DNA of 64,000 nt from an uncultured Chloroflexia bacterium (GTDB lineage: Bacteria > Chloroflexota > Limnocylindria > Limnocylindrales > CSP1-4). Below the pieces are notes generated by a model. The model was not told the origin of the DNA. It searched no databases and was given only the letters and a program-made list of their open reading frames with translations. Below, piece by piece: positions 24,880-35,100 of the stretch (the stretch's first letter is position 1; every line of letters starts with the position of its first letter). The stretch spans positions 480,001 through 544,000 of the forward strand of contig CAVVYR010000007.1 in the NCBI GenBank assembly GCA_963752475.1, read 5' to 3'. A program made the translations under genes and the position numbers.

Positions 24880-25866
24880 ATGACGGTCGAACGCCAGACG
24901 TTCCACCAGCAGATCAGTCAGAACAAGCGACGCTCCATCCTGCTGATGGGCGCGGTCGTGCTGCTCTTCTGCGTGCTGGCCTGGTTCTTCGGCTTCTACC
25001 TCGCGGGCGACCCGGCCAACGCCATCTGGTTCGTGCCGGTCGGCGGCATCATCGCCGTGGTCATCAGCCTGGGCGCGCTGTTCGGTGGCGACGGCATGAT
25101 CCTGGGCATCTCCCGCGCGCGGCAGGTCACCGACACCGACGAGCCACAGCTGATGAACGTGGTGCGCGAGCTCTCGCTGGCGGCCAACCTGCCCGAGCCC
25201 AAGGTCTACGTCATCGAAGACACCGCGCTCAACGCCTTCGCCACCGGGCGCGATCCCGAGCACGCGAGCGTAGCGGTCACGCGTGGCCTGCTCGAGCGGC
25301 TGGATCGGGAGGAGCTGCAGGGCGTGGTCGGGCACGAGCTGGCCCACGTGGCCAACTACGACATCCGCTTCAGCCTGCTCGTGGGCGTGCTCGTGGGCTC
25401 GATCGCGCTGATGGCCGACCTGCTCGCTCGCATGACCATCTGGGGCTCCATGACCCGCGGCCGCGGCAGCAACCGCAGTGGCGGTGGCGGCGGACAGGTC
25501 ATCATCCTCGCCATCGGCCTGATCGTGGCCATCCTGGCGCCGCTCTTTGCGCGCCTCGTGCAGATGGCCGTCAACCGGCAGCGTGAGTACCTCGCCGACG
25601 CCACCAGCGTCGAGCTCACGCGGAACCCGTATGGACTGGAGCGCGCACTGGCCAAGCTGGCCACCGACACCGAGAAACTCGACGGGGCCAATAAGGCCAC
25701 CCAGCACCTCTACTTCGTCAACCCCGTGAAGAAGCTCGAGCACAGCGCGAGGGGCTTGTTCAGCACCCATCCGGCCATCGTCGACCGCATCAACCGGTTG
25801 CGGAAGCTGACTGGCCAGCCGGAGATCGACGAGAGCGGGATCGGAGAGATCGCCGGCCTGCGCTGA
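24880..25866 (+). CDS. htpX: M48 family membrane zinc metalloprotease HtpX
   Basis: NAFATG, HELAH, REYLAD, FSTHP..DRI; follows lemA. Confidence 0.92.
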   Translation: MTVERQTFHQQISQNKRRSILLMGAVVLLFCVLAWFFGFYLAGDPANAIWFVPVGGIIAVVISLGALFGGDGMILGISRARQVTDTDEPQLMNVVRELSLAANLPEPKVYVIEDTALNAFATGRDPEHASVAVTRGLLERLDREELQGVVGHELAHVANYDIRFSLLVGVLVGSIALMADLLARMTIWGSMTRGRGSNRSGGGGGQVIILAIGLIVAILAPLFARLVQMAVNRQREYLADATSVELTRNPYGLERALAKLATDTEKLDGANKATQHLYFVNPVKKLEHSARGLFSTHPAIVDRINRLRKLTGQPEIDESGIGEIAGLR

Positions 25867-27143
25867 GACGCGGCGACTTCCATCGCACCCGTCTCGAACG
25901 CCCGGATGCGCTCGGCCGTGCCGTCGGGCAGTCGCACGACGCCGATGATGCGTCCGTAGAGCAAGGCGCCCGCGCCGGCGACGAGGAGACACAGCACCAG
26001 CCCTCCGGTCTCGCCCATGAGGCCGATATGCACCGGGGCCATCAGCACGAAGGGCACGACCAGGCCACGCAGGCCCATGATCGAGTTGAGCCCCGCGGCC
26101 ACGGCTGCTTGTTCGCCTTCGGGCGAGTGGTTCGCGATGAGCAGCGGCCAGGCAGCGTTGACCGCGGCGTTGCTCGTCCCCAGCAGCACCGTGGCCACGA
26201 TGATGGCCTCGAGCGAGGGTGCGAACGCGAAGGCACCCAGGGCGAACGCGCCGATCAGCGTGCCTCCGAAGATGGTCGGCAGCGGACCGAAGCGACCTGC
26301 GATCCGGCCCCAGATCCCGATGGTCACAGCGGTACTGCCGTAGCTGAGCAGGCCGGCCAGCGCGATGTCGCCGATCGAGAGGCCGAGCCGGTCGACGTGG
26401 ACCATGGCGATGAAGGCCGGCGCGGCCATGGTGCCGGCGCCGAAGAGCAGCTGGGCCCCGGCGATGCGTCGCACCATCGGTGTCGCCACGACCGCGCGCA
26501 GCGCGCCCCTGGCGCTGAAGGACTGGCCCGAGGCGATGCCGGGGACCTCCATGCGCCCGACAGCCAGGCTGCTGATGGCACCGACCGCGGCGACGATGGC
26601 CACGATCGGTACCCAGCCGTCGGCCGAGGCCGCGACCGTGATGGCCAGCAGTGCCAGCGTGCCGGCGGTGAAGCGGCCGGTGCCGACGATCCCGAGCAGG
26701 CGGCCCCGGTCCTCCGACGGGTAGATCGTGGCCCAGATGCGCTGCTGCAGCGGGGCGCCCAGTGCGAACGTGACCCAGAAGACGAACGTCGCTCCGGCGA
26801 TGAGCAGCGGGTGCGGTGCCACCAGCACGAGCAGCAGGCCAAGTGCGCCGGCAGAGCGAAGGATGGCCAGCCGGGCAGGGGAGCGCGGGCCGATACGCCC
26901 GGCGAACATCGTCAGCAGGGTAGCCAGGAAGGGCAGTGCGGCGAGGGTGGCCAGACCCATGGCATCGAGTCCCTCGCGGCGAGCGACCGAGGGCAGCAGG
27001 ACGCTGACGACTGCCATGGTCGTGCCGGTGCCGACCGCGGACGAGAGGTCGAGCGACAGGTTGCGCACGAGCGTCGATGGACGCGGAAGCGAAGCGGCCG
27101 GATACGTGCCCGGTCGGAAGGCTGGGGGCTGGGGCCAAGCCAC
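25710..27143 (-). CDS. MFS transporter, riboswitch-controlled, substrate unknown
   Basis: About 12 hydrophobic segments, YPSEDRGRLLG and WGRIAGRFG loops; GTG start 27143 preceded by GAGGTG; 3' end overlaps htpX. Confidence 0.85.
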   Translation of the reverse strand: MAWPQPPAFRPGTYPAASLPRPSTLVRNLSLDLSSAVGTGTTMAVVSVLLPSVARREGLDAMGLATLAALPFLATLLTMFAGRIGPRSPARLAILRSAGALGLLLVLVAPHPLLIAGATFVFWVTFALGAPLQQRIWATIYPSEDRGRLLGIVGTGRFTAGTLALLAITVAASADGWVPIVAIVAAVGAISSLAVGRMEVPGIASGQSFSARGALRAVVATPMVRRIAGAQLLFGAGTMAAPAFIAMVHVDRLGLSIGDIALAGLLSYGSTAVTIGIWGRIAGRFGPLPTIFGGTLIGAFALGAFAFAPSLEAIIVATVLLGTSNAAVNAAWPLLIANHSPEGEQAAVAAGLNSIMGLRGLVVPFVLMAPVHIGLMGETGGLVLCLLVAGAGALLYGRIIGVVRLPDGTAERIRAFETGAMEVAASQRRPAISPIPLSSISGWPVSFRNRLMRSTMAGWVLNKPLALCSSFFTGLTK

Positions 27144-27164
27144 GAGAACACCTCGAAACGAAAC

Positions 27165-27290
27165 GGCTTGGCCTGCGAGGTGAGCTGTCGGGCTCGGCCA
27201 CCAGCGTGGTGGCCTGCGCGGACGGTCCGCGGTTCGCCCCAAGGAGAGGTTGGTTCCCCCGTCCCCCGAGCGTGGGGGTTCGGCCTGCCC
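27165..27290 (-). promoter_or_regulatory. Cyclic di-AMP (ydaO/yuaA) riboswitch
   Basis: Minus strand has the conserved blocks in order: GCCGAA..GGGACGGGGGAACC..TTGGGGCGAA..CCGAGCCCGACAGCTCACCTCGCAGGC; TACGCT -10 at 27298-27293. Confidence 0.9.
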
Positions 27291-27430
27291 CCAGCGTAGC
27301 GGGCGCAAACGTTTCCTTCGGTCGGCGGATGGTGAAGAAAGCGCAACGGTCAAGCCTGGATCGGACCCGGCCGTCAGCTGTTTGTGCGTCGCGGCCAAGA
27401 TGTGGTGTAATGTCCTGACCGCAGCGGCGG

Positions 27431-27506
27431 GCCGAGATAGCTCAGTTGGTAGAGCACACGACTGAAAATCGTGCGGTCGCCAGTTCGAATCTGGCTCTCG
27501 GCACCA
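27431..27506 (+). tRNA. tRNA-Phe(GAA)
   Basis: GCCGAGA/TCTCGGC, CACGA-CTGAAAA-TCGTG, CCA. Confidence 0.97.
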
Positions 27507-27538
27507 CTACACGGCGCTATCCCAGCGCTCGAGATCCG

Positions 27539-27615
27539 GCGGAAGTAGCTCAGTTTGGTAGAGCATCACCTTGCCAAGGTGAGGGTCGAGGGTTCGAGTC
27601 CCTTCTTCCGCTCCA
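27539..27615 (+). tRNA. tRNA-Gly(GCC)
   Basis: GCGGAAG/CTTCCGC, TCACC-TTGCCAA-GGTGA, TCCA. Confidence 0.97.
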
Positions 27616-27656
27616 CTCCCTCCCTTCTCACCTCGTAGACTGTCCGCGGGATTCGT

Positions 27657-27730
27657 TGCCCCTTCGTCTAGTGGTAGGACACCGGACTTTGGATCCGAGA
27701 ACCGAGGTTCGAATCCTCGAGGGGCAGCCA
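27657..27730 (+). tRNA. tRNA-Gln(TTG)
   Basis: TGCCCCT/AGGGGCA, loop CTTTGGA, GCCA. Confidence 0.96.
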
Positions 27731-27763
27731 CTCCGACAGGGCTGGTAGCATCTGCCCGCACGA

Positions 27764-27840
27764 GGTGACGTGGCGAAGAGGCTTAACGCACTGGTCTGCA
27801 AAACCAGCATTCACCGGTTCGAATCCGGTCGTCACCTCCA
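27764..27840 (+). tRNA. tRNA-Cys(GCA)
   Basis: GGTGACG/CGTCACC, CTGGT-CTGCAAA-ACCAG, TCCA. Confidence 0.97.
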
Positions 27841-27933: not shown

Positions 27934-29016
27934 CTAGGGGGTGTAGAAGAGGTCCACGTCGACGAAGGGATCGTCGGTTCCATCGGCCGTCGTCTCATGG
28001 TCGGTGTGGTAGCTCGTGGGCGGTTGGCTTGGTGAACCGTCCTGGATTCGGATGGAGTCGCGGTCCGGGCTGATGATCGCGTCCTTGATGTAGCTCAACG
28101 CGCCGGCGGACGCGGGGTAGATGTCGGAGAGTTCCACAGCCTCCCGGTACTGCTCTATCCCGTTCACTGCCGTCCACCACCCGTGCCAGCCACTCTCCGC
28201 CTTCACCAGCAGGTGGTCGGCCCGTGCCTTCTTGACCGACGTGATGACGTGGCTCGTGACATCCCACTTCCCGAACGTCGCGGCGTCGGTATCCTCGGGG
28301 TATCGGTCCATGACGATCGTGTCGCCGGGACTGGGGGTGCCGTCGAGGTCGGTGTCGACGAGTTTGGCGATGAGCACGTCGCCGCTACCGAACTGGCCGT
28401 CCTGGACGAGGTCGGAGTAGGCGATCGCGAGGGTCTTGGGCGTCGGTGCCGGTGGCGCCGGTGGCGCGGGTGGCGCGAACACGGACTTCGGCAGCTCGCA
28501 TCGGACGTGCGGGCCATGGCCGGTGTTCTGGTAGCAGGCGTCGACACCGATGCCACCATCGAGCCTGTCGAAGCCAGCACCACCGAAGAGGACGTCGGGT
28601 CCGGCCTGTCCTGCGAGGAAGTCGTTCTGCTGGCCCCCGAAGAGCCGGTCCACACCGGCCAGGCCGAACAGCCGGTCGCGCCCCGTCTGGCCCAGGAGCT
28701 TGTCGTGTCCGGCACCACCGGCGATGCGGTCGTTGCCCGCGCCACCGCAGATGACGTCGTTGCCGCCACGGCCGAGGATGATGTCGTTGCCCCCGAGCCC
28801 GGCGATGATGTCGCGCCTGGCGGTGCCGATGATGACGTCCTTCTTCGGAGTGCCGACCTTCGTGGCCACCTTGCCGTCGCACTTGACGAGGCGCTTGGCC
28901 CCGAGCGCCTTCGCGGGCTCGACGTCATCGGCTGCGGCGGTGACGGCCGCGAACGAGGCGGTGAGTGCGGCAGCCGCCAACACGGCCACGGCTCGTCGGA
29001 TGGAGCGTCCAGTCAT
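27934..29016 (-). CDS. Secreted calcium-binding RTX repeat protein, paralogue 2
   Basis: MTGRSIRR signal peptide; repeat block near-identical to paralogue 1; C-terminus TDDPFVDVDLFYTP. Confidence 0.88.
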   Translation of the reverse strand: MTGRSIRRAVAVLAAAALTASFAAVTAAADDVEPAKALGAKRLVKCDGKVATKVGTPKKDVIIGTARRDIIAGLGGNDIILGRGGNDVICGGAGNDRIAGGAGHDKLLGQTGRDRLFGLAGVDRLFGGQQNDFLAGQAGPDVLFGGAGFDRLDGGIGVDACYQNTGHGPHVRCELPKSVFAPPAPPAPPAPTPKTLAIAYSDLVQDGQFGSGDVLIAKLVDTDLDGTPSPGDTIVMDRYPEDTDAATFGKWDVTSHVITSVKKARADHLLVKAESGWHGWWTAVNGIEQYREAVELSDIYPASAGALSYIKDAIISPDRDSIRIQDGSPSQPPTSYHTDHETTADGTDDPFVDVDLFYTP

Positions 29017-29153
29017 CGAGGACCCACTGCCGCATGCCGAGCCGGATGGCGTCACTCGACGATCTTCCTCGATTGTGACCAGTCCTTCCCTGCGTCGCTC
29101 CGCGTGGATGCACCGACTCCGGTCGGCGGCCTCATCAGTGGACCGAGGCGGTC

Positions 29154-29365
29154 CTACGGCAGGAAGATCTCGACGTCGGTGAAGTCGTCGTCTCCCGAGC
29201 CCGGCGCATCGATCCTGGTGATACGACGATGATCCGGACGATGTCGCCAACCTCGCCGTAGCTCCGAGTCCCCGAGCCAGCCCGACCGAGAAACGAGAAG
29301 TCGGTGTCCCGGCGGAGATCTCGTAGTACTCCTGCTCATCCAGCCACCAGTCGTGTTGGCCGCTC
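29154..29365 (-). pseudogene. Orphan, frameshifted C-terminal remnant of the RTX paralogue family
   Basis: Three frames give GQHDWWLDEQEYYE, GDIVRIIVVSP and GSGDDDFTDVEIFLP-stop, matching the family C-terminal motifs in order. Confidence 0.7.
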
Positions 29366-30118: not shown

Positions 30119-31084
30119 CTAGTAGTTCAGCACTACATCGATGAACGCGTCATCGGTGCTGCTCGGCCCCGACGCTTGAACGAGTACCGGGGTCTGGGGA
30201 CCGCTCGGGCTACCCGCCTGAACCCCGATCACATCAGGGCTGGTGCCGTCGAACCCGTCCAGGAAGGTTGCCTCGATGCCTCCGTCCTCACCGTAGAGCT
30301 CCCCCAGACCGAGTCTGTACCAGGTGTGGCCGGCGTTGGCAGTGGACCACGCGTGAAGGAGAGTGGCGGTGCTCTGGCCGCTGATGCTCGCCACGTCATG
30401 GCTCGTTGTGGTCCAGTCACCGAACGCCGAGGCGTCGAAGTTCGTCGGGTACCGGCCCATCTCGATGGTGTCACCGGCGTCGGGGCCATTGCCGTCGGTG
30501 TCCATGAGCCGGGCGATGAGCACGTCACCGGTGCTGTATCCGTCGAGGCCGTCGATGTCGCTGTAGGCGACCGCGAGGATGCCCGTCAGCGGGATGAGCG
30601 AGGGACCGGGCGGCGGCGGTGCCGGGCGCTCACAGCGAACGACCGGACCCGACCCCGTGCCCTGGAAGCAGGTGTCCACGCCGATGCCACCATTGATGAT
30701 GTCGTTGCCGATCTGGCCCGCGAGGAAGTCGGGACCGACGTTGCCATTGAGCGTGTCGCGGCCGAGCTGACCCCAGATGGTGTCGGCGCCGGGACCCCCG
30801 AAGACGACGTCGTTGCCCTTGCCCGCACAGATGAGGTCGCTGCCGCCCTTGGCGTAGATGCGGTCGGCCCCGCCCCTGGCCACGATGACGTCGCGCTTGG
30901 CGGTGCCCTTGAGGATGTCGGCCTTCTTGGTCCCGACGATCGTGGCCACCTTGCCTTGGCACTTGGGCTTCGGCTTCTTGGCCGCACCCTCCACATCCAC
31001 CGCGAGCGCGCTCGTCGCGAGCGCGGCGGTCAACGTGGCAGCGGCAAGCACGGCCACAACTCGACGGATGGGATGTGCCGTCAT
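30119..31084 (-). CDS. Secreted calcium-binding RTX repeat protein, paralogue 3 (copy 1)
   Basis: Signal peptide, CQGKVATIVGT, GGxGxD repeats, Pro linker, C-terminus TDDAFIDVVLNY. Confidence 0.88.
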   Translation of the reverse strand: MTAHPIRRVVAVLAAATLTAALATSALAVDVEGAAKKPKPKCQGKVATIVGTKKADILKGTAKRDVIVARGGADRIYAKGGSDLICAGKGNDVVFGGPGADTIWGQLGRDTLNGNVGPDFLAGQIGNDIINGGIGVDTCFQGTGSGPVVRCERPAPPPPGPSLIPLTGILAVAYSDIDGLDGYSTGDVLIARLMDTDGNGPDAGDTIEMGRYPTNFDASAFGDWTTTSHDVASISGQSTATLLHAWSTANAGHTWYRLGLGELYGEDGGIEATFLDGFDGTSPDVIGVQAGSPSGPQTPVLVQASGPSSTDDAFIDVVLNY

Positions 31085-31171
31085 CGCGTACCCCCTTCGC
31101 GGTGGGGAGCCCCAGATCGAGGCTCGACCACGAGTGCATTATCCCGCAAGGCACAACGCCACTCTCCCTGC

Positions 31172-31507
31172 ATGACCGACCTCGAGAACGCCAGGGCCGC
31201 CGTCGATGAAACCACGCCCGAGGGCTGGTACGCGGGCCGAGCGGGCCACGAGGAGCGGCACAACCAGTGGTGGCGACACGCCTTCGATCCCTCCGAAACG
31301 CCCATCGTCGGCAAGCGGTCGCGCGAATGGGTCACGGTCGGTCGCACCGAGCTGGAATGCGTCAGGGGGGTGGCACGTCGCTTCGGAGAACGGCGGGAGG
31401 GTCGCTGGCCGGATCAGGGGGGCGGGCAGTCGGCGCGGCACGATGGGGCTACTCGGCAGGTGGCTCCATCGGGTCGGGCACTGGCGGCATGCCGCCAGTC
31501 GGGATGA
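31172..31507 (+). CDS. Small hypothetical Trp-rich protein (copy 1)
   Basis: MTDLENARAAVDETTPEGWY..HAFDPSETP..REW; protein-like composition; tail overlaps the convergent gene. Confidence 0.5.
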   Translation: MTDLENARAAVDETTPEGWYAGRAGHEERHNQWWRHAFDPSETPIVGKRSREWVTVGRTELECVRGVARRFGERREGRWPDQGGGQSARHDGATRQVAPSGRALAACRQSG

Positions 31508-32024
31508 TGACGCCCCAGTTCGCCGCGTTGTCGAAGTCGTCGGGCGCACTCATGATGAGGGTCAAGCCCTGATAGCCACCCGCCCCGGTCAGCACGATCA
31601 ACCCCGTCGTACGCGGCACCTCATCACTGAGCGCCATCTCGCTGGTGAATGCGACCATGCTCAGGCCGGTCCCCGACCACGTCCCGCCGTCGTTGACGAG
31701 TCGCACGCTCGACGTGACGGTCGTGGCGGCACTGTCGCCGAACGTGAAGGTGTCGGCGTTGTCTACGTACGTCATCAGGCCCGACGCGCGGGGATCGGTC
31801 GCCTCGACCGGTTGGTCGACCCAGATCCCACCACGTATCTCGGTCGTGGTGCCGTCGACAGCGGTGACCTGACCTTCGTCGAACGCCCCGGACGACTCTG
31901 TTTGGAACGTGAAGTAGGCCGGGGCCATCGGGTCGGCTTCGTCCTGCGCGGCTACGGCCACGGACAAGCTGATGGCCAACAGCAGGATGACCGCCCCGCC
32001 AAGGGGCACCCGCAACGGACGCAT
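31449..32024 (-). CDS. Secreted hypothetical beta-rich protein (copy 1)
   Basis: GGAGG RBS, signal peptide, VEATDPRASG, LVNDGGTWSG, LTGAGGYQGL. Confidence 0.75.
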   Translation of the reverse strand: MRPLRVPLGGAVILLLAISLSVAVAAQDEADPMAPAYFTFQTESSGAFDEGQVTAVDGTTTEIRGGIWVDQPVEATDPRASGLMTYVDNADTFTFGDSAATTVTSSVRLVNDGGTWSGTGLSMVAFTSEMALSDEVPRTTGLIVLTGAGGYQGLTLIMSAPDDFDNAANWGVIIPTGGMPPVPDPMEPPAE

Positions 32025-32299
32025 GACATCCCCTCCCATCCGCGGGCCGGGTTCGCCAGTGGCTCGGCACGGTCCAGGCGGCCAGTGCTGGGGCCGTGCG
32101 TCATCGCCTCCCGCTACGTGCCATTGTCTCGCGGGCGTCCACGACTACCTGCTGCGTCGCAACTTGCCGGTGCCGCGACCACCGGATCGACTCCGCGAGT
32201 GACCGATCTCCGCCTCAGCCATCCTGGCTTCGACTTCTGTGACGATGACACGGTCGCGTCGAACTTGACGGCATAGAGGAAGCAGTCAGGATGGGCCGC

Positions 32300-32941: not shown

Positions 32942-33885
32942 ACGCGTCATCGGTGCTGCTCGGCCCCGACGCTTGAACGAGTACCGGGGTCTGGGGACCG
33001 CTCGGGCTACCCGCCTGAACCCCGATCACATCAGGGCTGGTGCCGTCGAACCCGTCCAGGAAGGTTGCCTCGATGCCTCCGTCCTCACCGTAGAGCTCCC
33101 CCAGACCGAGTCTGTACCAGGTGTGGCTGGCGTTGGCAGTGGACGTCACGCGTGAAGGAGAGTGGTGGTGCTCTCGGCCGCTAATGCTTGCCACCGACAT
33201 GGCTCGTTGTGGTCCAGTCACCGAACGCCGAGGCGTCGAAGTTCGTCGGGTACCGGCCCATCTCGATGGTGTCACCGGCGTCGGGGCCATTGCCGTCGGT
33301 GTCCATGAGCCGGGCGATGAGCACGTCACCGGTGCTGTATCCGTCGAGGCCGTCGATGTCGCTGTAGGCGACCGCGAGGATGCCCGTCAGCGGGATGAGC
33401 GAGGGACCGGGCGGCGGCGGTGCCGGGCGCTCACAGCGAACGACCGGACCCGACCCCGTGCCCTGGAAGCAGGTGTCCACGCCGATGCCACCATTGATGA
33501 TGTCGTTGCCGATCTGGCCCGCGAGGAAGTCGGGACCGACGTTGCCATTGAGCGTGTCGCGGCCGAGCTGACCCCAGATGGTGTCGGCGCCGGGACCCCC
33601 GAAGACGACGTCGTTGCCCTTGCCCGCACAGATGAGGTCGCTGCCGCCCTTGGCGTAGATGCGGTCGGCCCCGCCCCTGGCCACGATGACGTCGCGCTTG
33701 GCGGTGCCCTTGAGGATGTCGGCCTTCTTGGTCCCGACGATCGTGGCCACCTTGCCTTGGCACTTGGGCTTCGGCTTCTTGGCCGCACCCTCCACATCCA
33801 CCGCGAGCGCGCTCGTCGCGAGCGCGGCGGTCAACGTGGCAGCGGCAAGCACGGCCACAACTCGACGGATGGGATGTGCCGTCAT
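32916..33885 (-). pseudogene. RTX paralogue 3, copy 2, frameshifted at ~33145-33198
   Basis: Identical to copy 1 except a patch with +2, +1, +1 insertions and a few substitutions; may be sequence error. Confidence 0.75.
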
Positions 33886-33972
33886 CGCGTACCCCCTTCG
33901 CGGTGGGGAGCCCCAGATCGAGGCTCGACCACGAGTGCATTATCCCGCAAGGCACAACGCCACTCTCCCTGC

Positions 33973-34308
33973 ATGACCGACCTCGAGAACGCCAGGGCCG
34001 CCGTCGATGAAACCACGCCCGAGGGCTGGTACGCGGGCCGAGCGGGCCACGAGGAGCGGCACAACCAGTGGTGGCGACACGCCTTCGATCCCTCCGAAAC
34101 GCCCATCGTCGGGAAGCGGTCGCGCGAATGGGTCACGGTCGGTCGCACCGAGCTGGAATGCGTCAGGGGAGTGGCACGTCGCTTCGGAGAACGGCGGGAG
34201 GGTCGCTGGCCGGATCAGGGGGGCGGGCAGTCGGCGCGGCACGATGGGGCTACTCGGCAGGTGGCTCCATCGGGTCGGGCACTGGCGGCATGCCGCCAGT
34301 CGGGATGA
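33973..34308 (+). CDS. Small hypothetical Trp-rich protein (copy 2)
   Basis: Duplicate of 31172-31507. Confidence 0.5.
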   Translation: MTDLENARAAVDETTPEGWYAGRAGHEERHNQWWRHAFDPSETPIVGKRSREWVTVGRTELECVRGVARRFGERREGRWPDQGGGQSARHDGATRQVAPSGRALAACRQSG

Positions 34309-34825
34309 TGACGCCCCAGTTCGCCGCGTTGTCGAAGTCGTCGGGCGCACTCATGATGAGGGTCAAGCCCTGATAGCCACCCGCCCCGGTCAGCACGATC
34401 AACCCCGTCGTACGCGGCACCTCATCACTGAGCGCCATCTCGCTGGTGAACGCGACCATGCTCAGGCCGGTCCCCGACCACGTCCCGCCGTCGTTGACGA
34501 GTCGCACCCTCGACGTGACGGTCGTGGCGGCACTGTCGCCGAACGTGAAGGTGTCGGCGTTGTCTGCGTACGTCATCAGGCCCGACGCGCGGGGATCGGT
34601 CGCCTCGACCGGTTGGTCGACCCAGATCCCACCACGTATCTCGGTCGTGGTGCCGTCGACAGCGGTGACCTGACCTTCGTCGAACGCCCCGGACGACTCT
34701 GTTTGGAACGTGAAGTAGGCCGGGGCCATCGGGTCGGCTTCGTCCTGCGCGGCTACGGCCACGGACAAGCCGATGGCCAACAGCAGGATGACCGCCCCGC
34801 CAAGGGGCACTCGCAACGGACGCAT
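34250..34825 (-). CDS. Secreted hypothetical beta-rich protein (copy 2)
   Basis: Duplicate of 31449-32024 with 3 amino-acid changes. Confidence 0.75.
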   Translation of the reverse strand: MRPLRVPLGGAVILLLAIGLSVAVAAQDEADPMAPAYFTFQTESSGAFDEGQVTAVDGTTTEIRGGIWVDQPVEATDPRASGLMTYADNADTFTFGDSAATTVTSRVRLVNDGGTWSGTGLSMVAFTSEMALSDEVPRTTGLIVLTGAGGYQGLTLIMSAPDDFDNAANWGVIIPTGGMPPVPDPMEPPAE

Positions 34826-35100
34826 GACATCCCCTCCCATGCGCGGGCCGGGTTCGCCAGTGGCTCGGCACGGGCCAGGCGGCCAGTGCTGGGGCCGTGC
34901 GTCATCGCCTCCCGCTACGTGCCATTGTCTCGCGGGCGTCCACGACTACCTGCTGCGTCGCAACTTGCCGGTGCCGCGACCACCGGATCGACTCCGCGAG
35001 TGACCGATCTCCGCCTCAGCCATCCCGGCTTCGATTTCTGTGACGATGACACGGTCGCGTCGAACTTGACGGCATAGAGGAAGCAGTCAGGATGGGCCGC

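Follow-up and report, generated by a model that had tools for sequence, protein, structure and literature searches.

The stretch of DNA analysed here, hereafter the window, comprises 64,000 nucleotides (nt) of contig CAVVYR010000007.1 from an uncultured Chloroflexia bacterium. On its minus strand lies a riboswitch aptamer of the cyclic di-AMP (c-di-AMP) class followed by the gene for a major facilitator superfamily (MFS) transporter, an arrangement that the original prediction, made by inspection of the sequence, had read as a translational ON switch. Scanning with Rfam gave a match to RF00379 (c-di-AMP) at 27295-27155 (-), with a score of 61.1 bits against a gathering cut-off of 38 and with alignment to the full model (positions 1-134), so the ydaO/yuaA-type aptamer that had been recognised by eye is borne out by the covariance model. 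No further RF00379 match was found in the source genome. Including the flanks of the model the aptamer spans 27155-27295, and its core, from P1 strand to P1 strand, occupies 27285-27170. The cmscan alignment pairs the P1 5′ strand GGCC (27285-27282) with GGCC at 27173-27170 to give a P1 helix of 4 base pairs (bp), forms the long-range P3 helix between CGGGG and CCUCG (27180-27176), with the 3′ strand of P3 aligned as CCUCGC (27180-27175), and also places the usual internal hairpins. When 33 related aptamers were compared using RNAalifold, P1 and P3 were invariant and four of the five P2 pairs showed compensatory changes. The P7 stems vary in sequence among related leaders yet remain complementary; at the locus P7 is an inverted repeat at 27196-27214 (-), an 8-bp hairpin with arms that are 100% complementary and 3 nt between them. 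The source genome also encodes a DAC-domain cyclase (diadenylate cyclase), a possible supply of the ligand.

The transporter gene (25710-27143 (-)) runs for 477 codons to the first stop, and its product matches Pfam PF07690 (MFS_1) over residues 36-361 with an E value of 8e-25. The earlier label of an uncharacterised MFS transporter was apt: most of the 104 homologues at E ≤0.001 are unnamed, no NCBIfam model matches the protein, so that no named subfamily can be given, its neighbours in the protein atlas are all generic MFS proteins, and its best relative in the PDB, NorA, is weak and partial (E 1e-6 over ~110 residues). The GTG start codon at 27143-27141, in frame with the MFS_1 open reading frame (ORF), sits 26 nt past the P1 3′ strand, in agreement with the spacing of ~25 nt first estimated. 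Homologues share the N-terminus M-A-W-P. Across 20 orthologous leaders the start codon changes in its first base among allowed starts only (TTG 10, GTG 9, ATG 1), and a GAGG-type Shine-Dalgarno (SD) sequence is found 5-12 nt upstream of the start. At the locus the SD region is CGAGGUG (27149-27155 (-)), 14 nt after P1, and its GAGG core is invariant in 41 leaders. From these comparisons we regard this GTG as well supported as the true start. At its other end the MFS ORF overlaps for 157 nt (25710-25866) with a convergent Peptidase_M48 ORF (24880-25866 (+)); the overlapping tail is conserved in homologues, probably since it is antisense to the conserved C-terminus of the peptidase.

A -10-like hexamer, TACGCT (27293-27298 (-)), can be read in the sequence ending 7 nt before P1, and 36 of 40 orthologous leaders have a TAnnnT hexamer ending 5-9 nt before P1; a strict sigma-70 scan returned no promoter at the locus. 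On the strength of the hexamer, the transcript probably starts at or just before the aptamer. One contig from an RNA library, identical to the window, spans 27049-27258 with no transcript ends visible, and is compatible with, rather than proof of, a transcript running from the leader into the coding sequence. A further complementarity, peculiar to this genome, links the P1 5′ strand and its 5′ flank (27282-27295) with the start region and following codons (27128-27141), at 86% over 14 nt; most of this flank would be left untranscribed if the hexamer is indeed the -10 element.

Conservation of the riboswitch-MFS pairing

Among 40 relatives of the same order, RF00379 was present in 19 of the 24 genomes belonging to the same genus and in none of the 16 small genomes of a second genus. 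When the source genome is included (41 genomes) there are 23 places at which RF00379 occurs, and all of them are followed by an MFS homologue, with 37-100% protein identity. A search with the MFS protein gave 30 loci in Chloroflexota metagenome-assembled genomes, 12 of them duplicates of known loci and 18 new; RF00379 reached the cut-off in front of 11 of the new loci, and at the other seven there was no match even at E ≤1. These seven sub-threshold leaders (L044-L049 and L051), which lie ~110 nt upstream of MFS starts, retain the strands of P1, P2 and P3 as well as the 3′ core CAGCUCACCUCGCAGGCC; the second half of the aptamer is rewritten, and there is an extended anti-SD pairing of CACCUCGCAGG with CCUGCUUGGAGGUG. 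To judge from their sequences, they may represent an aptamer variant that binds its ligand differently or at a single site.

In a wider sample of the phylum, 21 of 151 genomes contain RF00379, and the members in other families score 75-107 bits. We took the first ORF of at least 110 amino acids after 21 RF00379 loci of this sample and scanned it against Pfam. GT20 (trehalose-phosphate synthase-like), ABC membrane and 3D plus SH3 proteins were each encoded twice, a c-di-AMP receptor, a GH2 and an LEA/KGG protein once each, and an MFS protein once, this being the window's own family; the remaining 11 had no Pfam hit. Since the leaders of the other families are canonical and precede other genes, the association with an MFS gene and the unusual leader are both specific to this family. 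At one of the loci in another Chloroflexota family (L064, genome G047) the gene behind a canonical c-di-AMP riboswitch encodes a cyclic-di-AMP receptor protein (PF06153), placing an RNA sensor in front of a protein sensor for the same ligand.

Complementarity of aptamer strands to the start region

Two segments at the 3′ end of the aptamer are exactly complementary to the initiation region of the MFS gene, as originally described, and all of the coordinates in that description check out. Segment A, CACCUCG (27176-27182 (-)), belongs to the 3′ strand of P3, and in an alternative fold it would serve as an anti-SD; it forms an inverted repeat with the SD region, segment A′ (27182-27176 with 27155-27149; 7 nt, 100% complementary, duplex -10.4 kcal/mol). 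Segment B, GGCCAAGCC (27165-27173 (-)), comprises the P1 3′ strand (27173-27170) together with five linker bases and would form the 5′ arm of a sequestor. Its 3′ arm would be segment B′, GGCUUGGCC (27133-27141 (-)), to which B is 100% complementary over 9 nt (27173-27165 with 27141-27133; duplex -17.7 kcal/mol). Segment B′ begins with the final base of the start codon, continues through codons 2 and 3 and ends two bases into codon 4, and thereby includes a GGCC at +7 to +10 of the start. This arrangement of 9 plus 9 nt was found at a single place in the window and was absent from all 100 dinucleotide shuffles.

The 3′ nucleotides concerned had been assigned to the folded aptamer, which is correct for CACCUCG and for the first four bases of GGCCAAGCC; AAGCC (27169-27165) lies just outside it. 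One amendment to the earlier description was required: the two pairings cannot be nested, since the segments are ordered A-B-A′-B′, so both helices together would make a pseudoknot and not one hairpin. In the unconstrained minimum free energy (MFE) structure the start region finds a different partner, segment X, GGCCGAGCC (27191-27199 (-)), which consists of the P7 3′ strand and junction; 27199-27191 pairs with 27141-27133 within a long nested hairpin that also holds A:A′.

The 9-bp B:B′ helix is conserved in 20 of the 41 orthologous leaders, those of genes beginning M-A-W (group 1). Segment B is GGCCAAGCC in 17 of these 20, and codon 2 is invariably the synonymous alanine codon GCU (20 of 20), a codon that makes up 7.1% of alanine codons genome-wide and 13 of the 101 alanine codons found at position 2 in the genome. 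The third base of codon 4, which is directly outside the helix, varies freely in group 1. Ranked for complementarity to the 3′ part of the aptamer, the start window fell in the top 5% of coding windows in 18 of the 41 leaders, all of them in group 1. In the MAFFT alignment of these leaders (A2), 84.9% of the cells are paired and the covariation score is 0.102, a value that none of 500 shuffles reached, compared with 0.075 after shuffling; because this alignment misaligns the start codons of the second group, pair counts for group 2 are understated or misplaced. One B:B′ pair changes from C-G to U-A in seven sequences, and wobble changes are also seen. No excess covariation was found for X:B′, which is weaker than B:B′, and we therefore rejected segment X as the conserved partner of B′; it remains a thermodynamic alternative. 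A candidate covariation between the start regions of groups 1 and 2 (GCCCA:UGGGC) was also rejected, as its energy ranking was within background.

Scanning metagenomes with the aptamer 3′ motif recovered at least 120 stretches, and among them was a sister clade in which the MFS genes begin V-x-R-P and in which a shorter form of the sequestor, based on GGCC, is retained by the choice of arginine codon. It can be seen from the matches listed that 41 of 73 distinct MFS-type leaders have GGCC at +7 to +10 of the start, compared with 6 of 909 control genes. In the same 73 leaders, again among the matches listed, codon 3 is UGG in 27, CGG in 24, AGG in 3, CGC in 1, CGU in 1 and another codon in 17, so that position-3 arginine is encoded by NGG in 27 of 29 listed cases; CGG plus AGG account for 23% of arginine codons genome-wide. 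Tryptophan and arginine have little in common beyond an xGG codon. Their exchange with retention of xGG makes the constraint look as if it acts on the RNA, the GGCC being complementary to the P1 strands, and the start-proximal GGCC looks to be kept by synonymous-codon choice. A regulatory RNA constraint would then be written into the first codons of the gene (UGG, CGG or AGG followed by CCN).

These patterns bear on whether the aptamer functions at all. It might be decaying or have ceased to bind c-di-AMP, with the complementarities being leftovers or a product of GC-rich composition. Consistent with that, the pseudoknot typical of the class is missing (see below), other Chloroflexota members score much higher than the 61 bits seen here, some relatives fall beneath the Rfam threshold, including the seven orthologue loci without a match, and it is common for a GC-rich 12-mer to have a partner in the aptamer at about -12 kcal/mol. 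However, the gathering cut-off is exceeded by a wide margin, the core junctions are as invariant as P1 and P3 in the 33 sequences in which P2 covaries, the association with the MFS gene persists to 37% protein identity, and the synonymous constraints on GGCC and GCU argue for function. We consider decay of the aptamer to be very improbable.

Direction of switching

There is no terminator-like site in 26900-27500, and because of this and of the short distance between P1 and the SD, control is most likely translational. The P1 bases 27173-27170 are common to P1 and to the 9-bp sequestor helix, which is the platform of an ON-type switch: with the P1 3′ strand as sequestor arm, ligand binding would, by the usual riboswitch architecture, prevent sequestration. 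Two OFF mechanisms are described in the literature cited here: one employs a separate terminator, and in the other the P7 loop and the 3′ tail form a pseudoknot in which the SD is docked (PMC11963983). The locus has no terminator and no P7 loop able to form an SD-docking pseudoknot. We rejected the canonical pseudoknot here because P7 ends in a triloop, which leaves no partner loop for a 3′-tail pseudoknot of the Thermoanaerobacter pseudethanolicus type, and the P7 loop is ≤5 nt in 18 of the 20 group-1 leaders. A second MFS subgroup with the N-terminus V-G-I-I (L002, L003, L005, L006 and L009-L011) does have a pseudoknot, UCCGU:ACGGA, at the canonical position; its tail ACGGA falls 3-9 nt after P1 and excludes the SD, which follows 6-10 nt further on. 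Leaders with and without the pseudoknot thus coexist in one genus.

We propose the following sequence of events; that the ligand binds, which way the switch works and where transcription begins are all inferred. When no ligand is present the short 4-bp P1 would open, the freed P1 3′ strand together with the five bases that follow it (27173-27165) would pair with the start region (27141-27133), and the P3 3′ strand (27182-27176) could pair with the SD. Alternatively, the unbound RNA could adopt the long nested hairpin in which 27199-27191 is the partner of the start region; the initiation region would be closed in either fold. Binding of two c-di-AMP molecules would lock P1 and P3 into the aptamer, leaving an AAGCC:GGCUU remnant and a weak SD hairpin as the only structures over the initiation region, and the ribosome could then load.

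Modelled folding energies fit this scheme. The MFE of the full leader is -83.5 kcal/mol when unconstrained and -69.9 kcal/mol with P1 and P3 enforced. The cost of opening the ribosome binding site region from -15 to +13 falls from 22.5 to 13.0 kcal/mol in the window leader when the aptamer helices are imposed. The medians of 40 leaders are 19.7 kcal/mol without and 13.1 kcal/mol with the helices enforced, and the median of 250 control gene starts of the same genome is 15.1 kcal/mol. Twelve of the 40 leaders are in the top tenth of controls when unconstrained and none with the helices enforced. As a check on bias from the constraint itself, we removed the upstream 114 nt from the controls. The median shift in opening cost was 0.7 kcal/mol (95th percentile 7.1), compared with 6.7 kcal/mol for the equivalent step in the leaders; the window change of 9.5 kcal/mol was matched or exceeded by 1.6% of controls.

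A number of observations weigh against an ON switch of this kind. The match of segment A to the SD is not above background, in that only 1 of 41 leaders has its SD window among the top 5% of coding windows. Indeed, complementarity between aptamer and SD is to be expected anyway, since the invariant aptamer core ACCUCG resembles an anti-SD. Covariation of the SD with the anti-SD gave almost no independent evidence, as four of the seven pairs never vary. In the other 21 of the 41 leaders the start window is unexceptional and the 9-bp helix was not seen; the helix is restricted to one clade, and pairings elsewhere are shorter and idiosyncratic. Covariation of B:B′ is itself modest, and as the sequences are related the shuffle statistics overstate the support for it. 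Mann-Whitney comparisons of leaders with controls likewise overstate significance, the leaders being phylogenetically dependent. Over the narrower region from -13 to +2 the opening cost at the locus goes from 12.6 to 8.0 kcal/mol, the former an unremarkable value that 19.6% of controls equal or exceed, and in several group-1 leaders the two states differ by less than 1 kcal/mol. The modelled bound state retains a 5-bp remnant (AAGCC:GGCUU) and a 4-bp SD hairpin, and the ViennaRNA models take no account of pseudoknots, tertiary structure or ligand energy. Finally, the directions stated for characterised c-di-AMP riboswitches in the sections of PMC9337991, PMC11963983 and PMC10907184 that address them are all OFF, which gives ON switching a low prior, and a literature search of limited scope returned no natural ON-type c-di-AMP riboswitch and no association of the class with an MFS gene.

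The riboswitch might instead be a conventional translational OFF switch, in which the bound aptamer occludes the ribosome binding site. Occlusion might be achieved by a tertiary dock for the SD, with the pyrimidine-rich P4 loop (27249-27239) as one example, or sterically, given how close P1 ends to the SD; on this view the MFS protein would bring in an osmolyte or K+-related solute and would be repressed at high c-di-AMP. The OFF systems in the literature include a translational SD-sequestering pseudoknot (PMC11963983) and an ‘interdomain docking’ grouping (PMC10907184), the P4 loop in the window contains ACCUC, which is complementary to GAGGU, and other Chloroflexota members precede OFF-regulon genes such as those for GT20 trehalose-phosphate synthase-like and 3D-domain proteins. 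A P4-loop dock was nevertheless rejected, because the complementarity of this loop to the SD is no better than that of shuffled loops (median p 0.5, n = 40). The canonical pseudoknot partner is reduced to a triloop, the conserved pairing of the P1 3′ strand with the start region would shut the gene when no ligand is bound, contrary to the logic of an OFF switch, and modelled accessibility rises, that is shifts in the ON direction, in 39 of 40 leaders when P1 and P3 are enforced. We therefore judge OFF switching to be unlikely.

A further explanation is that regulation occurs elsewhere than in translation, for example through Rho-dependent termination or mRNA decay, and that the start helix is a ligand-independent attenuator or stability element. 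The lack of an intrinsic terminator at the locus leaves room for this, as does the presence of the local SD hairpin CGAG/CUCG in both modelled states, and the narrow-window change of 4.7 kcal/mol at the locus is not matched in those group-1 leaders that barely respond. Against it, the arm of the helix overlaps P1 exactly and GGCC is kept at the nucleotide level in two clades, both of which are hard to explain unless GGCC interacts with P1; in addition the leader is short and, on reading the sequence, has no obvious C-rich unstructured stretch. Control at another level seems to us distinctly unlikely.

Taken together, the evidence tips us slightly towards a pseudoknot-less c-di-AMP riboswitch by which translation of a family-specific MFS transporter is switched ON. 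Of the original prediction, the real aptamer, the probably translational control and the placing of the sequestor within aptamer strands are upheld, and the evidence from the SD is weak, the two helices cannot be nested and the 9-bp helix is limited to one clade. For the fuller proposal, that this would be the first natural ON c-di-AMP riboswitch, lacking the pseudoknot, with a GGCC at codons 3-4 that competes for P1 and with high c-di-AMP inducing Chloroflexota-specific MFS efflux, we see the chances as evenly balanced. The suggestion that the MFS protein exports c-di-AMP, osmolytes or K+ is speculation that fits the ON logic, and most speculative of all is the idea that it exports c-di-AMP itself or a compatible solute and so closes a feedback loop.

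Relation to known systems and neighbouring features

The locus resembles the RF00379 class in its full-length match to the model, in its P1/P2/P3/P5/P6/P7 arrangement, in its invariant core sequences and in the presence of a cyclase in the genome. It differs from the class in having neither the pseudoknot between P7 loop and 3′ tail nor a terminator, and in a platform that points to ON. The genes usually controlled by RF00379 riboswitches, according to PMC7266159, are those for K+ or amino-acid transporters, cell-wall functions and osmotic shock, and here an MFS gene is found instead.

There is a parallel with the T. pseudethanolicus riboswitch, which, according to PMC11963983, is likewise translational with a 4-bp P1, a GUG start and an SD near the aptamer. 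In that RNA a pseudoknot of nt 83-88 with 125-130 sequesters the SD when ligand is bound, giving OFF behaviour (PMC11963983). At the locus the equivalent loop is closed, and it is the SD and start that are complementary to aptamer strands. An engineered ON version of the T. pseudethanolicus riboswitch described there has an SD/start stem-loop that competes with the aptamer and is freed by ligand through strand displacement. The principle of competition is shared, but the engineered version is artificial and competes with pseudoknot formation, whereas the natural leader would compete with P1 and P3. In the papers cited here, c-di-AMP riboswitches are treated as inherently OFF, such that an ON version had to be engineered (PMC11963983).

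The other Chloroflexota riboswitches (L055-L083) share the aptamer class and the phylum with the locus. Unlike it, they have a P7 loop of CUCUUU type and a tail of GAGAGAGG type, followed by hairpins and then U-tracts, and they precede GT20, CdAMP_rec, 3D+SH3, ABC and LEA-type genes, which fits OFF terminator designs. The MFS pumps MdrM and MdrT of Listeria are implicated in c-di-AMP export; the transporter of the window belongs to the same superfamily.

Should the ON reading be true, cells would also use a c-di-AMP riboswitch to induce genes at high c-di-AMP, and in this transporter an uncultured Chloroflexota lineage would have a candidate for the ‘export’ side of its c-di-AMP and osmolyte homeostasis, a side about which little is known. 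The leader would in addition provide a ready-made natural scaffold for an ON sensor.

Upstream of the riboswitch and divergent from it is a cluster of tRNA genes (27431-27837 (+)), and this synteny recurs at the orthologue loci L028-L053. Elsewhere in the window there are two matches to RF03170 (c-di-GMP-II-GCG), at 32036-32120 (-) and 34838-34921 (-), with 67.1 and 63.7 bits against a gathering cut-off of 47.9. The pair lies within an apparent tandem duplication of ~2.8 kb, in which the ORF sets 30119-32070 and 33181-34871 are offset by ~2801, and the ORFs directly downstream of the two matches have no Pfam hit. RTX calcium-binding repeats are encoded in the minus-strand ORF 30119-31084 and in the ORF 27934-29250.

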